Below are positions 1-32,000 of a DNA stretch of 32,000 nucleotides, one piece after another (the stretch's first letter is position 1; each line of letters starts with the position of its first letter). The DNA lies in NCBI RefSeq assembly GCF_003044035.1, contig NZ_NVQC01000024.1, positions 32,773 to 64,772 on the forward strand. The letters run 5' to 3'. Source of the DNA: Candidatus Methylomirabilis limnetica (lineage in GTDB: Bacteria > Methylomirabilota > Methylomirabilia > Methylomirabilales > Methylomirabilaceae). The position numbers were made by a program, and so were the translations under genes. The notes below the pieces were generated by a model. The model was not told where the DNA came from and did no database searches. It saw nothing but the letters and a program-made list of their open reading frames with translations.

Positions 1-55
1 TGCCCGGATCACGATACAAGATATCTAAGATTTCCTGAGCCAATGACATGCGCAT
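1..55 (-). CDS. hypothetical protein, first 18 codons only (gene continues past the left edge)
   Basis: Reverse-strand ATG at 55-53 is preceded by AAGGGTGA (Shine-Dalgarno-like). The frame stays open to position 1 (MRMSLAQEILDILYRDPG...). Too short to name. Confidence 0.25.
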   Translation of the reverse strand, partial: MRMSLAQEILDILYRDPG

Positions 56-330
56 TGCATCACCCTTATGCTGTGTTATTGACTGAGCGTACTACCTCTT
101 CATCCAATCCACAAGCGAAAAATCTCACTGGCGCCACAAGAAAGAATCGTATCGCCTCTACGGCTCACGGGAAGCCTTCCCGCCGTTCAAGAAATTCTCT
201 TGGCCCTTAACCAGTATATCGACACATGCGGTGAACTCGTGATGAGAAAATCCAGTTGAAGAAACTCGTGCCGTACGCCGAAGGGATCTTCTTGCGCGTA
301 GATTGAAAGGTGTCATTGTAAGCGTAGGAA

Positions 331-388
331 CCCAATACCCCATTCGCCCACCTTTATCAAAGGGGGAATTGGGGGGATTTAGGGGAGC
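331..388. repeat. G/C-run palindromic (REP-like) element just downstream of the peptidase gene
   Basis: The CCTTT-ATC-AAAGG hairpin at 351-363 is flanked by C-runs and G-runs (cccaatacccc ... gggggaattggggggatttagggg). It has the same style as the element at 6654-6712. Confidence 0.6.
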
Positions 389-399
389 GACACGCGTCA

Positions 400-1554
400 T
401 CATTCGATCTCAAACTCGCTGATCTCTTTTGGGAAGTTGGTCAGATTTCGGCACCCTGCCGCAGTGACGACCACTAGGTCCTCAATCCGAATGGCCCCTG
501 CATCCAGATAGTAGAGCCCAGGCTCAACTGTCACCACGTAGCCACTTCTCAGAACCCCACCTGTCTTACCGATACGCGGGGGTTCATGGATATCGAGACC
601 AACCCCGTGACCAGTGCCGTGGAAGAACCCTTGCATCCGCCCGCCGAGCATACAGGTGGTAAATCCATCCTTCTCCAACACACCATTCACCTCGGCGTGT
701 ATGGCCCTTCCGTCGGCTTCGTCTCTGATTAACTCCATCCCGCGCTCCTGGGCGCTGAGCACCGCTCTGTACATAGCTCGAAGCTTCGGAGATGCCTTCC
801 CCTTCACGACGGTCCGGCTCATGTCGGCATAGTAACGGCTACGTTCCGACCTCGGAAAGACGTCGATCACAATCGACTCGTTTGCCCTGATGGGCCCATT
901 TCCATGATGGTGCGGATCGACCCCCTGCAGGCCGGGCGCCACAATCGTATGTTGGGCCACGCACTCGTGTTCCATCAACTTCATGTGCATGATCTTCTTG
1001 AGCGCCTCGGCGGTCAATTGCTCACCGTCGAGGTACAGCAGCCCGTCGCTCTCTATCCTGGCTGCCCGAATTGCCGAGACCGCCGCGCCCATGGCCTCTT
1101 CGGTGGCGCGCTGAGTCGCGGCAATCGCCTCAACCTCTGCGTCGCTCTTCACCAGCCGCGCCTCGAAGAACGGCTCACGTTTCACGGAGAGCGTGTAGCC
1201 CCTTGCCCGCAGGCCATCGGCGTACTCGACACCGAAGTTGCCAGGGACCAGCAGGTGGCGAGCCCCTCGCTCCTGCAGCACGAGGTCCAGGACATCCAGC
1301 AAGGACGGTGCGTCGGCGCCCTTCTGCCTCGCCATGCGCTCATACGCGCCATAGGAGAGAACCGTATCTACGCTCGATTGACTCTTCGCCCGATCCAGCT
1401 CCAGGTCGCTCATCACGGCGATCTTCTCTGCGCTAGTCTGGACAAAGATAAAGGGGTCCGGCGCCGCGAACCGGGTCGCATAGTACAGGTTCGCATCGAT
1501 CTCGCTGGCTGAGATCATGACCGTCGCATCACAGCCGGACAGCTCTTCCATCAC
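400..1554 (-). CDS. Xaa-Pro aminopeptidase/dipeptidase, M24B family
   Basis: 384-aa ORF with a creatinase-like N-domain followed by the M24 fold. Metal-ligand motifs HGTGHGVGLDIHEPP and VEPGLY are visible. The first codon is GTG at 1554, with an ATG one codon later (1551). Confidence 0.85.
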   Translation of the reverse strand: MMEELSGCDATVMISASEIDANLYYATRFAAPDPFIFVQTSAEKIAVMSDLELDRAKSQSSVDTVLSYGAYERMARQKGADAPSLLDVLDLVLQERGARHLLVPGNFGVEYADGLRARGYTLSVKREPFFEARLVKSDAEVEAIAATQRATEEAMGAAVSAIRAARIESDGLLYLDGEQLTAEALKKIMHMKLMEHECVAQHTIVAPGLQGVDPHHHGNGPIRANESIVIDVFPRSERSRYYADMSRTVVKGKASPKLRAMYRAVLSAQERGMELIRDEADGRAIHAEVNGVLEKDGFTTCMLGGRMQGFFHGTGHGVGLDIHEPPRIGKTGGVLRSGYVVTVEPGLYYLDAGAIRIEDLVVVTAAGCRNLTNFPKEISEFEIE

Positions 1555-1654
1555 CCATGCCCCCAGAAGGCAGGACCCTTTGATCTTGCGGCCGTCATGT
1601 GAGCAAATACCCCATGCGCCGAAGGTGCGCCGCAGGTATGAAAGTCGGCACCCC

Positions 1655-1793
1655 GTTCCCCCTCACCTTCATCCTCTCCCTCCCCGCTGGGGGGAGAGGA
1701 GATTTTATTATTATCCCTCGCCTCTGGGTGCGGAGCCGCGTCTTTTTTTACCCCTCGCCCCCCGCTGGGGGAGAGGGTGCGGGTGAGGGGAAC
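1655..1793. repeat. G/C-rich nested-palindrome element (outer stem closing two CCCC-GCT-GGGG hairpins)
   Basis: The outer arms gttccccctcacc (1655-1667) and ggtgaggggaac (1782-1793) are reverse complements. The inner hairpins lie at about 1673-1700 and 1752-1777, and both have a GCT apex. The last base is the first base of the thiC stop codon. Confidence 0.8.
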
Positions 1794-3127
1794 TATGGCT
1801 TATGGATACCTTGTACCTCGCCAAGATGCGACGAGATCTTCATCGAGCAAAACTTCGGGCCGCACATCGAGCAGAACTCGGCGCTCTTGAACTCCTCGTT
1901 GGGCAGGGCCTCATCATGTCTGGCGCGGGCCGTCTCGGGGTCGATCGCCAGCGCGAACTGGCCCTCCCAGTCGAAGTTAACCCTGGCACGAGAGATCGCA
2001 TCGTCGCGATCGCGCGCGCCTTTCCGGCCTCTGGCAATATCGGCCGCATGGGCGGCGATCTTGTACGCGATGCACCCCTGCTTCACATCTTCCAACGTGG
2101 GTAAGCCGAGGTGCTCTTTCGGTGTCACATAACAGAGCAACGAGGCACCGTACCATCCGGCCATCGCGGCGCCGATCGCCGACGTGATGTGATCGTATCC
2201 AGGCGCGATGTCGGTCACTAGTGGGCCCAGCGTGTAAAACGGCGCCTCCTGGCAAATCTCCTGCTCCATCCGCACGTTCATTTCGATCTGGTCCATCGGC
2301 ACGTGCCCAGGTCCTTCGATCATCACCTGGACATCGTGGGCCCATGCCACCTTTGTCAGTTCGCCCAAGGTCCGAAGCTCGGCGAACTGAGCTGCATCGG
2401 AGGCATCTGCGGTACAGCCCGGCCTCAGGCCGTCGCCCAGGCTAAAGCTGACGTCGTATTTTCGGAAGATCTGACAGAGCGTCTCGAAATGCGTGTACAG
2501 CGGATTCTGCTGCTGGTGGGCGAGCATCCATCGCGCCATGAGGGCGCCGCCTCGACTCACAATCCCGGTGATCCGAGACTGCACGAGCGGCAGGTGCTCA
2601 CGCAAGACGCCGGCATGAATCGTCATGTAGTCCACGCCTTGCTTGGCCTGGTGCGCAATCATGTCGATCATATCGTCAGCGGTGAGGTCTTCCACCTGTT
2701 CCACGCTCGCGACCGCCTGGTAGAGAGGAACGGTGCCGATTGGAACCGGGCTGGCCGCGATCATCGCGAGGCGGATTTCGTCGATGCTGCCGCCTGTGCT
2801 CAGGTCCATGACCGTATCGGCCCCGTATCGTATAGCCAGCATCAGTTTGCACAGCTCCTCATCGATGTCGGAGGTCAAGGCAGAGTTGCCGATGTTGGCG
2901 TTGATCTTGACAGTGGCCACCGTCCCGATCCCCATCGGCTCGAGGCTTCTGTGATAAATATTACAGGGAATAATGAGTCGGCCACGGGCCACCTCGGCCC
3001 GGACAACCTCGGCATCTAGACCTTCCCGCTCGGCAACGTAGGTCATTTCCGGCGTGATGATCCCCTTGCGGGCATAGTGTAACTGCGTCACGCAGTCCCC
3101 ATTCAGGTGAGTAGTCCGTGCAACCAT
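1793..3127 (-). CDS. thiC: phosphomethylpyrimidine synthase ThiC (radical SAM, thiamine pyrimidine branch)
   Basis: ThiC motifs DLSTGG, EGPGHVP and the C-terminal [11 protein letters not shown] cluster motif are present. The start is set at ATG 3127 (MVARTT...) because GAAGGAG lies 6 nt upstream. The 14 extra codons of the ORF-track model run into the riboswitch terminator. Confidence 0.93.
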
Positions 3128-3145
3128 GTGAGGCTCCTTCTCAGA

Positions 3146-31647: not shown

Positions 31648-31721
31648 TGGGTGATCCTATTCCTTTACCGCCTTCTCCGGGCTCTGCCCGCAACCAATTT
31701 CATTCTCGTCGAGGGTCGATA

Positions 31722-31804
31722 CCCCGCGGCTTGCCGCGAGTTCGTAATACCGGCGGAAGCCGGTATCCAGCGGGCCCGACTGGATTCCGTGTCAAGCACG
31801 GAAT
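31722..31804. repeat. REP-like cluster of three short perfect hairpins
   Basis: CGCGG-CTTG-CCGCG lies at about 31725-31738. ATACCGGC-GGAA-GCCGGTAT is at 31747-31766 and ATTCCGTG-TCAAG-CACGGAAT at 31784-31804, linked by CCAG...CTGG. This resembles the widespread element type that translates as ...IPAEAGIQ.... Confidence 0.7.
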
Positions 31805-31850
31805 GACGGGCCAGAACAGAAGACGATACCCCATAGATTGCTGCGGGGTA

Positions 31851-31872
31851 GTTAATTCTAACTTAATTCTAA
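31851..31872. promoter_or_regulatory. AT-rich 11-bp tandem direct repeat in the divergent promoter region
   Basis: GTTAATTCTAA CTTAATTCTAA, with a period of 11 bp (about one helical turn). It lies between the iscS-led operon and the plus-strand gene at the right edge. On the minus strand each unit contains TAGAAT. Confidence 0.35.
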
Positions 31873-31935
31873 GGGCTCTTCGCGTAATCGAGTGGGTGAA
31901 TTTAACATGAAATCCTCTGTAAGCCTTGTGGCATC

Positions 31936-31944
31936 TGGTAAAAT
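31936..31944 (+). promoter_or_regulatory. candidate extended -10 element (TGGTAAAAT) for the plus-strand gene at the right edge
   Basis: It matches the TGnTAnAAT pattern about 40 nt upstream of ATG 31984. No convincing -35 was found. Confidence 0.3.
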
Positions 31945-31983
31945 CCGGTCTGCACCCCTTGCAGAAAACGGGAGGATTTCTCA

Positions 31984-32000
31984 ATGGCTATTTCAACCAA
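31984..32000 (+). CDS. start of an unidentified plus-strand gene (5 codons visible)
   Basis: ATG at 31984 is preceded by GGGAGGA with a 7-nt spacer (MAIST...). This is the only plus-strand coding start I can support in the window. Confidence 0.4.

Follow-up and report, generated by a model that had tools for sequence, protein, structure and literature searches.

IVS-like hairpin elements in the operon spacers of Candidatus Methylomirabilis limnetica and their likely derivation from IVP cassettes

The closest described counterparts of the elements reported here are the intervening sequences (IVSs) of 23S rRNA. In Coxiella burnetii, the IVS carries the S23p/IVP open reading frame (ORF) in the loop of a stem-loop; tandem heptamers (GACAGAT), in a number that varies by strain, lie immediately upstream, and RNase III cleavage occurs at the first of them. 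The origin is left unresolved and "mobile element" is offered only as a hypothesis (PMC4990558). We analyzed a 32,000-nucleotide stretch of the genome of Candidatus Methylomirabilis limnetica, which belongs to the phylum NC10 and oxidises methane in a nitrite-dependent manner (contig NZ_NVQC01000024.1; hereafter the window, meaning this entire stretch), and found that its intergenic spacers house a multi-family population of IVS-like hairpin elements built from short tandem units. We regard these as a variant of the IVS, short tandemly repeated repetitive sequence (STRR) and MITE (miniature inverted-repeat transposable element) kinds, with one family being a proven MITE, and consider it likely that they are small, non-autonomous, ORF-less miniatures of IVS-like cassettes centered on IVP, i.e., the PF05635/TIGR02436 four-helix-bundle gene with an ORF of ~120 codons.

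Like the 23S IVSs of Leptospira and Coxiella, the system features a PF05635 protein, an ORF in the loop of an inverted-repeat stem, adjoining heptamers whose number varies between strains, and a sporadic, seemingly horizontally acquired distribution; IVSs have themselves long been suspected of being mobile. The IVS-type features seen here are a PF05635 ORF or an apparent derivation from one (for the CTGAAGG and 9-mer families), stem-forming inverted ends and strain-variable tandem repeats. However, all copies lie between protein-coding genes, in the operon spacers of mRNAs, rather than in helix 25/45 of 23S rRNA. Moreover, most window copies are ORF-less, several unit families coexist in one genome, and one of these has terminal inverted repeats and 8-bp duplications. 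RNase III excision has been shown for IVSs, whereas here it would follow by analogy.

A second point of comparison is provided by the STRR heptamers of heterocystous cyanobacteria, reportedly described by Mazel et al. in 1990, with the units CCCCAGT, TTGGTCA and CAACAGT. These too are intergenic tandem heptamers with several families per genome, and the six IVP genes inspected on cyanobacterial plasmids are flanked by such arrays; they differ in unit sequence and phylum, and are usually described as direct arrays rather than as inverted arms. Thus, the window elements resemble STRRs but are not members of that class, the organism and the units being different. The analogy, first drawn in an earlier note made from the letters of this DNA, is apt, since heptamer arrays flank IVP, the gene from which the window elements appear to derive, in all six cyanobacterial plasmids inspected. 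STRRs were still called uncharacterised in 2015 (PMC4692102), and no report linking them to IVP was found in the searched full-text literature. The same article (Rehm et al. 2015, PMC4692102) describes ~186 intergenic GGGAATC arrays in Xanthomonas (Xcc), 70 of them as convergent pairs capable of forming stem-loops, with a species-variable length, and reads them as G-quadruplex motifs. The same units flank the Xanthomonas IVP, in inverted orientation, inside the accBC operon; in contrast, the window units are not G-tract motifs. Term searches of PMC4692102 returned no mention of the gene, S23, four-helix or IVP.

In their architecture, the window elements further recall the Correia/NEMIS and ERIC elements, which are small, non-autonomous, have terminal inverted repeats and target duplications, lie in co-transcribed operon spacers and form a hairpin that is a target of RNase III. 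The Correia/NEMIS elements of Neisseria are cut by RNase III; they have no known ORF-bearing parent and no subterminal tandem units, unlike the window elements, whose presumed parent carries a non-transposase gene in the manner of a "mobile insertion cassette". The TAACTGA repeats of Beggiatoaceae and some cyanobacteria are likewise abundant intergenic heptamer arrays, one to a few nt upstream of start codons and common to distant phyla; they are mostly direct rather than inverted, and their description, in which a regulatory role is proposed but not shown, does not mention IVP (PMC4679880). Finally, IVP is related to Avd, the accessory protein of diversity-generating retroelements, as seen in a weak match to NF033474, matches to PDB 2GSC/2RLD and a homologous pentameric four-helix-bundle fold. 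This homology is discussed in PMC10053308, and the IVP family has been described as functionally uncharacterised. Unlike Avd, the M. limnetica IVP has no reverse transcriptase or template/variable repeats nearby, and Avd genes are not described as array-flanked. Full-text searches, which covered few subscription journals and so leave an earlier description possible, turned up no report tying non-rRNA IVP genes to flanking tandem arrays or MITE-like derivatives.

Spacer repeats and hairpins of the window

The arrays, their arrangement as inverted arms and the bracketing of single genes by one family, all described in the earlier note, are confirmed. Arrays were located with Tandem Repeats Finder (TRF), arms by an inverted-repeat search, and folds of the minus-strand RNA were compared with shuffles (z-scores). 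The elements are as follows, with a strand assigned to the CTGAAGG elements:

1655-1792: G/C-rich nested hairpin (CCCCTCACC...GGTGAGGGG), an inverted repeat; -77.2 kcal/mol, z = -6.2; a separate family, ending 2 nt ahead of the ThiC stop codon
3353-3449: 9-mer hairpin copy 1, (TGGTCTRTY)5-loop-(GAYAGACSA)5; TRF periods 9 and 88; z = -5.9
3451-3535: second copy of the 9-mer hairpin, tandem to the first; z = -3.6; ends 1-2 nt from the RmuC stop at 3537
4952-5102: composite 9-mer hairpin in the RtcB-RmuC spacer (TRF, inverted repeats); loop motif GTCACCGACCAAA twice; z = -6.1
6577-6623: upstream of RtcB, GCGTTCATG-type 9-mers as a solo array (TRF); no significant hairpin
6653-6714: G/C-rich hairpin (AAATCTCCCC...CCCCTCTTTTCCAAAGAGGGG...), from the fold structure; public short-read contigs stop here
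10198-10323: GTTGAAC hairpin, (GTTCAAC)4-loop-(ATTGCAC GTTGAAC)6, in the spacer from the CcmH stop to the CcmI-like start; arms 97% complementary; z = -6.2
10841-10882: solo GTTGAAC array of ~5 units (TRF) in the thioredoxin-like/ccmH spacer; z = -0.6, no hairpin
18132-18249: GTAGAGG/CCTCTAC heptamer hairpin (TRF) in the E3 (lipoamide dehydrogenase)/LplA spacer; z = -4.2
19734-19830: G/C-rich double hairpin, an inverted repeat, in the E2/E3 spacer; z = -3.8; short-read contigs break here
21118-21257: 9-mer hairpin (TRF, inverted repeat) filling the E1-beta/E2 spacer; z = -9.7; abuts the stop at 21251 and leaves ~21 nt with the E2 ribosome-binding site; contigs break within it
25293-25317: AGCTATT heptamer array of 3.6 units (TRF), spanning the FdhD stop and the 11-nt FdhD/PHP junction
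27413-27575 (27405-27583 with duplications), minus strand: CTGAAGG MITE (inverted repeat, alignment to IVP cassette); z = -6.3
28159-28306, minus strand: another CTGAAGG MITE, which retains a remnant of the IVP C-terminus (..LICAVRD); z = -2.0
31700-31840: group of three short hairpins, GC-rich, ahead of the aminotransferase gene; z = -2.5

As delineated by TRF, the arrays are those of the TGGTCTATC 9-mers (3353-3533, 4952-5100 and 21121-21210), GTTGAAC (10198-10323 and 10849-10882), CTGAAGG (27434-27557 and 28262-28288), GTAGAGG/CCTATAC (18132-18249), AGCTATT (25293-25317) and GCGTTCATG (6577-6623). The inverted arms measure 30-59 nt and are 71-97% complementary (e.g., 59 nt at 71%, 46 nt at 80%), and the main hairpins fold at z = -3.6 to -9.7. 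Hence, the claim of distinct repeat families arranged as hairpin-forming inverted arms is upheld, excepting the solo arrays: the regions 10836-10886, 25287-25320 and 6571-6714 fold no better than shuffles, and neither does the element at 28159-28306. By the public gene calls there are 21-22 spacers longer than 70 nt, about 12 of which are occupied by elements with units of 7 or 9 nt, so that the majority occupancy previously claimed stands; the earlier count was 13 of 21. The high-scoring arrays all fall within spacers or at their edges; coding DNA furnishes only two-copy, low-score TRF rows.

Three genes, those for RmuC, CcmH and the nuoB-like Oxidored_q6 protein, are each flanked on both sides by one family, as had been claimed; a hand calculation over 21 spacers puts the chance of this at 0.27, 0.095 and 0.095, or ~0.0025 jointly, for what is a post hoc observation. 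At the stop codons 1793, 3537, 21251 and 28309 the distance to an element end is indeed 0-2 nt, and the AGCTATT array, also as first described, covers the fdhD/PHP junction and overlaps the FdhD stop at 25298. None of the elements was flagged on the minus strand as an intrinsic terminator, with a GC-rich stem and, behind it on the coding strand, a U-tract, which rules out that class; the one minus-strand hit nearby (3178-3155) belongs presumably to the TPP riboswitch described below.

The arms of the 9-mer hairpins (3353-3535, 4952-5102 and 21118-21257) are not exact complements: the left arm is mostly TGGTCT and the right one prefers AGACGA, so that every unit has a single mismatch, G.G on the plus strand or C.C on the minus strand. 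Nitrospira moscoviensis and a deltaproteobacterial metagenome-assembled genome (MAG; L026, L056) have this bias as well. Each heptamer family has a stop codon in one arm, namely CTGAAGG (27434-27454), GTTGAAC (10293-10323), GTAGAGG (18132-18161) and AGCTAAT (25293-25317), and none in the complementary arm; because a period of 7 nt shifts the frame with every unit, three units suffice to halt translation in every frame. Many IVP ORFs read into the adjoining array, which supplies their stop codon.

Short-read assemblies break at the elements, as expected of multi-copy sequence. Four contigs of 1352-1356 bp from other samples cover only 19797-21152 of the window, ending inside repeats. The elements are thus of practical import in that they fragment such assemblies.

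IVP cassettes and their probable ORF-less derivatives

A 64.5-kb metagenome contig matches the window at 1-14925 with 0 mismatches (L001) and at 9858-31801 with one mismatch (L006, L010). On it, 3.2 kb outside the window, M. limnetica encodes a full IVP ORF (L001 18188-18550; TIGR02436 104.8 bits against a cut-off of 24) with (TGGTCTATC)n (18121-18162) on one side and (GACCAGATA)n (18542-18614) on the other, its stop codon falling inside the first unit of the latter. The hairpin 5' of this ORF has a non-repetitive core, CGTCTATCTCGTCACCGACCAAA, in common with the window hairpins 3451-3535 and 4952-5102, and the hairpin at 3353-3449 has the core CGTCT.TCTCGTC.C.GACCAAA in common with the cassette hairpin. 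The 9-mer family is thus connected to IVP through a full cassette on the same contig with the same loop core. The M. limnetica cassette sits within a polysaccharide locus (NusG-like, Wzy, epimerase; L001 16075-19608), and in several Nitrospira genomes (L022, L085, L102, L129) an IVP cassette occurs just upstream of a NusG-like gene 52-54% identical to the one in this locus.

The CTGAAGG family offers a second line of evidence. The element at 27413-27575 is bounded by 8-bp target-site duplications (CTTGACGC at 27405-27412 and 27576-27583) and by a terminal inverted repeat (GTAACTACTCAGGTG..., 37-nt arms, 84% complementary, termini GTAACTACTCAGGT / ACCTGAGTAGCTAC) with subterminal heptamers, and retains on the minus strand the IVP remnants MRDHIKLR and, in a second frame, EKVLNGSTRALRG. 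In a second strain (L007), a 169-bp CTGAAGG element is nested in the 28159-28306 element, with an 8-bp duplication, CACTGCTT, at window 28245-28252. Including TGAGAC(A/G)G at a copy in a congener (see below), such duplications are present at three copies (CTTGACGC, CACTGCTT and TGAGAC(A/G)G); none is recognisable at the 28159-28306 copy. Together with the presence/absence polymorphism provided by the nested insertion, this proves the CTGAAGG family to be a MITE; the ccmH spacers, empty in the congener, are a further case of such polymorphism. Both window elements and the nested copy align end-to-end with the IVP cassette of a Nitrospira MAG (L030), the gene of which is furnished with CTGAAGG units and ends matching those of the window elements. 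The copies keep the heptamers, the termini and the ORF start (ATGCGTGATCATA.AAGCT; ATG CGT GAT CAT A.A AAG CT, MRDH(I/T)KLR), which extends to 16 codons in the nested copy and is barely recognisable in the 28159 copy; the last ~12 IVP codons (EKVLNGLICALR) persist in all three, with the middle of the ORF deleted. We consider this alignment decisive: the CTGAAGG elements read as internal-deletion derivatives of an IVP cassette, and the remnants in both window elements are oriented like the surrounding genes. The GTAA termini and 8-bp duplications of this family presumably recall IS66, and a DDE transposase acting in trans would move it.

For the remaining heptamers the link to IVP is drawn from like units that flank IVP genes elsewhere. 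GTTCAAC-type units do so in L186 (inverted), L209, L139, L142 and L191, while units related to the other families occur near IVPs as AGAGGTA in L039, AGCTCAT/AGCTATG in L068 and AGCTAAA in a Calothrix plasmid. Judged by these comparisons, at least two families, CTGAAGG and 9-mer, descend from IVP cassettes as ORF-less derivatives and GTTGAAC probably does so too, GTAGAGG has like units beside IVPs, and the AGCTATT array (25293-25317) may tentatively be assigned to an IVP-flanking family. Thus, the contention that several unrelated unit sequences coexist holds as regards the coexistence of distinct families, but not as regards their being unrelated, with CTGAAGG, 9-mer and probably GTTGAAC all tracing to IVP cassettes.

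The association of IVP with arrays is far more general. When GTDB genomes were scanned for three 9-mer units in succession, at least 120 stretches were recovered; M. limnetica was not among the matches listed, most of which come from Nitrospirota and Desulfobacterota/Syntrophales, with scattered others. In 14 loci among the matches listed, 9-mer arrays bracket a ~120-codon PF05635/TIGR02436 ORF. Further units at IVP genes in the collected loci include CAGAAGC, AGCTCAT, AGAGGTA, TAATTACT and CTATGCGC, and the commonest cassette layout is A(n)-loop-A'(m)-ORF-A'(k), with A' denoting A in reverse complement. Metagenomes yielded 80 IVP loci picked by protein similarity alone (4-sequence query; 50-84% identical to the IVP of M. 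limnetica). Of these, 59 of 75 have a short-period array no more than 200 nt upstream of the gene, and 58 of 65 have one at or just past the 3' end of the ORF (79-89%); arrays cover 27.9% of the IVP-adjacent DNA of these loci as against 4.7% of the remainder. At least three 8-mers, direct or inverted, are common to both flanks in 56 of 67 loci, compared with 21-28% of mismatched locus pairs. IVP identity correlates with unit similarity (Mantel r = 0.46, with 0 of 2000 permutations as high); therefore the gene and its arrays diverge together. A PF05635 search found at least 4402 proteins at E <= 1e-20 (8000 candidates scored).

The Xanthomonas campestris IVP (XCC0516 orthologue, PDB 2GSC; L216 1924-2372) is co-directional with its neighbors in the accB-accC spacer and flanked by (CGGGAAT)4.4 and (CCCATTC)4.3. 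Its highly conserved accBC operon is thereby interrupted much as the ccm and pdh operons of M. limnetica are by the elements described here; the elements are therefore natural probes of how long stem-loops in polycistronic RNA are tolerated or used. Cyanobacteria account for 15 of the 19 plasmid records with IVP, and in all six inspected (Nostoc, Calothrix, Anabaena) heptamer arrays stand on both sides of the gene, in inverted orientation in five: GGGAAAA/CCCTTTT, TTAGCTG/AGCTAAA, GGTGACA/CTGTCAC, AGGGTGT/CTACACC and AGTAGGG/TCCCTAC. In several Desulfobacterota MAGs (L019, L023, L097, L108 and others) 9-mer arrays are often followed by GTTGAAC, CCTATAC-like, GGGCATG or GCAGTGA arrays or by G-rich hairpins; arrays of different families are therefore physically joined to one another, as also in the window (6577-6714).

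The intergenic, palindromic and multi-copy nature of the elements, and the breaking of assemblies at them, could also be had from a known class unrelated to IVP, such as the repetitive extragenic palindromes of the REP/BIME-RAYT kind, Correia-like MITEs or a degenerate CRISPR, with IVP as a frequent passenger or target; IVP does occur beside cas genes, being listed as "23S rRNA IVP" in a figure of new CRISPR-adaptation-module associations in PMC10910872. We hold this to be very improbable indeed. Between the MITE termini lie coding remnants of IVP, implying that the ORF moved with the ends, 79-89% of the IVP genes sampled by protein alone are array-flanked, and no hairpin matches any Rfam family. 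REPs and BIMEs are imperfect palindromes of 20-40 nt that go with a RAYT transposase gene, unlike the window elements with their 85-180 nt of tandem units. A CRISPR array (repeats of 24-48 nt with unique spacers) is ruled out, the 7-9-nt units being arranged head-to-tail without spacers. In plasmid pANA02 of Anabaena sp. 90 (L222), an IVP gene with a 273-nt heptamer array lies between cas6 and cas4, which may bear on the entry in that large CRISPR-association screen (PMC10910872).

Several points weigh against a derivation of the window repeats from IVP cassettes. A six-frame search of the window with the IVP profile gave a best E of 16, the short CTGAAGG remnants being recognised by alignment only. 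For the 9-mer, GTTGAAC, GTAGAGG and AGCTATT families there is no target duplication, nor a terminal inverted repeat beyond the arrays, and their mobility is inferred from presence and absence between species. The flanks of the 9-mer and GTTGAAC elements have no direct repeats, displaying only extended palindromy (e.g., TATTT...AAATA at 21118/21257). Nor did a transposase or any other mobilising enzyme come to light, though no whole-genome search was made. The G/C-rich hairpins at 1655-1792, 6653-6714 and 19734-19830, and those at 31700-31840, have no tie to IVP. The 120 or more 9-mer loci include probable chance or coding matches, e.g., in Streptomyces and Lachnospiraceae, and IVP may be a mere passenger.

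A wider proposal, which we advance tentatively and as rather less than probable, is that IVP cassettes constitute a widespread, unrecognised class of mobile hairpins, in which the IVP pentamer would recognise its own 7-9-nt units, in RNA or DNA, and thereby drive their spread or the processing of the hairpin. Several kinds of repeat would then originate in their ORF-less miniatures: the STRRs of cyanobacteria, the GGGAATC repeats of Xanthomonas, the spacer hairpins that occur in several families in Methylomirabilis, Nitrospira and Syntrophales, and the classical 23S rRNA IVSs. If so, the STRR heptamers, the ~186 Xanthomonas arrays and the ORF-bearing 23S IVSs would have one common parent, and the large PF05635 family would gain a testable role, the binding of IVP to its own flanking unit.

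Variation between strains and species

Two contigs of this second strain (that of L007), 99.3-99.9% identical to the window, differ from it by substitutions and four indels, all four of which fall in repeats: one of 28 nt (four heptamers; 10241-10268), one of 18 nt (two 9-mers; 21123-21140) and two homopolymer indels in the G-rich hairpin at 19734-19830. Such whole-unit changes between near-identical strains would suit ordinary microsatellites, arisen by slippage in situ in AT-poor spacers, immobile and unrelated to IVP, with the arms formed by local inverted duplication; four of the families have no target duplications, and slippage is discussed for the over-representation of heptamers in bacteria by Rehm et al. 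(PMC4692102). Yet we judge this explanation highly unlikely: TGGTCTRTY, GTTCAAC and CTGAAGG recur in other phyla beside homologous IVP genes, and the CTGAAGG elements hold non-repetitive IVP remnants, terminal inverted repeats and 8-bp duplications. The common non-repetitive loop GTCACCGACCAAA is likewise hard to obtain by slippage, and loops and termini common to three copies count against it. Under the reading favored here, arrays do lengthen and shorten by whole-unit slippage, as the strain indels show. L007 matches the window only to ~31873; upstream (L007 860-1190; window 31852-31872 onward) it has a different sequence with G-rich hairpins (CCCCTCTTTGGAAAAGAGGGG), this divergence being a strain-specific breakpoint adjoining a duplication of TTAATTCTAAC.

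The comparison was extended over 21.4 kb to a congener, Ca. Methylomirabilis sp. GCA_028716865.1, in which the genes and their order are as in the window. The spacers compare as follows:

ccmH to next gene: 4 nt in the congener; 147 nt with the GTTGAAC hairpin in the window
trx-like gene to ccmH: 32 nt without a GTTGAAC array in the congener; 86 nt in the window
RtcB to RmuC: 81 nt with about two degenerate 9-mer units in the congener; 196 nt in the window
CofH to RtcB: no G-rich hairpin and the GCGTTCATG-type array down to one copy in the congener; both present in the window
rmuC to thiC: a CTGAAGG element with the duplication TGAGAC(A/G)G in the congener; the double 9-mer hairpin in the window

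In all, these 21.4 kb hold one qualifying TRF array, that of the CTGAAGG element, versus about nine elements counted here. As the spacers of the congener are short, empty or filled by another family, the elements are not conserved regulatory structures, and conserved regulatory hairpins are thereby ruled out as the primary explanation. The elements mark rapid, lineage-specific genome change in Methylomirabilis.

A related alternative holds that the hairpins are selected cis-acting elements rather than selfish DNA, serving as operon punctuation or, as a regulon, in the capacity of IVP operators or RNA-binding arrays. The elements do lie near gene ends, 9-mer arrays in other genomes often start 5-40 nt upstream of a start codon, one such array is found upstream of RtcB in three Nitrospirota genomes, and the co-divergence of IVP and its units fits specific recognition. 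Against this stand their absence from the orthologous spacers of a congener with conserved genes and order, the occupation of the same spacer by different families in the two species, the copy-number differences between strains and the solo arrays that do not fold; hence, we regard selection as the reason for their presence as improbable, although a cis-acting role is compatible with a mobile origin, since elements can be exapted. In the three Nitrospirota genomes (L060, L131, L133) the TGGTCTRTY array is directly upstream of RtcB and an M24 peptidase gene is adjacent in all; RtcB of the window, too, has flanking 9-mer arrays. Either inheritance of an insertion or a functional association could account for this.

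The congener bears as well on the suggestion of the earlier note that the elements spread into neighboring spacers and/or strongly prefer gene boundaries. The former part is borne out by local clustering, in the form of the nested third CTGAAGG copy in L007 and the bracketing noted post hoc: in this window, and again post hoc, copies arise preferentially near existing copies. A strong boundary preference fared less well. For the most part, nearness to start and stop codons follows from insertion into operon spacers that are short to begin with, the ccmH spacers of the congener being 4 and 32 nt. Among the matches listed from other genomes, with crude gene calls, spacer geometry would place 25.3 +/- 2.5 of 74 intergenic 9-mer elements no more than 10 nt from a gene end; 33 were observed there. 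Any true preference for gene ends is thus at most modest.

Under derivation from IVP cassettes, loss of the ORF by recombination between two direct A' arrays, or by internal deletion, would leave an A-loop-A' hairpin. Insertions would survive chiefly in the short gap that, within an operon, separates a stop codon from the ribosome-binding site that follows, which would explain the 0-2-nt distances from stops. By analogy with the 23S rRNA IVSs, the long imperfect stem may be an RNase III substrate, and cleavage would not terminate operon transcripts but punctuate or stabilise them. The earlier proposal that stem-loops punctuate the polycistronic RNAs is plausible.

Gene map and other features of the window

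The gene map combines gene calls on the L001/L006/L010 contig with precomputed Pfam hits; RmuC (PTL35393.1), the E2 acyltransferase (PTL35408.1) and ThiC (PTL35392.1) have identical protein entries of Candidatus Methylomirabilis limnetica. As originally described, the coding sequences are co-directional on the minus strand with short overlaps: this is true of all substantial ORFs and of all gene calls on the identical public contigs, bar one opposite-strand call of 30 aa. The 4-base overlaps are confirmed at 400/403, 9868/9871, 13381/13384 and 17395/17398, and the co-directional run goes on for ~6 kb beyond window position 1, by the contig gene calls. The genes, all on the minus strand, are, in order:

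1, minus: aminotransferase, radical-SAM protein, IscA-like, Oxidored_q6 (nuoB-like)
2, minus: ferredoxin, YjbQ, FdhD, PHP
3, minus: LipA, pyruvate dehydrogenase (PDH) E1-alpha, E1-beta, E2, E3, LplA
4, minus: response regulator
5, minus: CcmA, B, C, D, E, F, thioredoxin-like protein, CcmH, CcmI-like
6, minus: two CofH-like enzymes with a RelE-type toxin pair between them
7, minus: RtcB, RmuC, ThiC, M24 peptidase

An Rfam search of the window returned a thiamine pyrophosphate (TPP) riboswitch as its sole match; the window has no tRNAs, and no rRNA was found in it by gene calls or Rfam. The features ahead of thiC are:

3337-3309, minus: promoter-like site, near consensus TTGACA-17-TAGATT, preceding the TPP riboswitch
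3186-3297, minus: TPP riboswitch upstream of thiC, 56 bits
3178-3155, minus: stem and U-tract just 3' of the TPP aptamer, presumably the riboswitch expression platform

With this promoter-like site and riboswitch before thiC, the double 9-mer hairpin lies between the rmuC stop and the thiC promoter rather than within one transcript.

Between the two CofH-like genes, the window codes for a RelE/ParE-family toxin (8237-8569, minus) and its probable partner (7900-8220, minus), forming an islet at 7900-8569. The congener has a trypsin-like gene and a DUF433/DUF5615 pair in the same gap (L225 5556-7215), which looks like a variable toxin-antitoxin islet.

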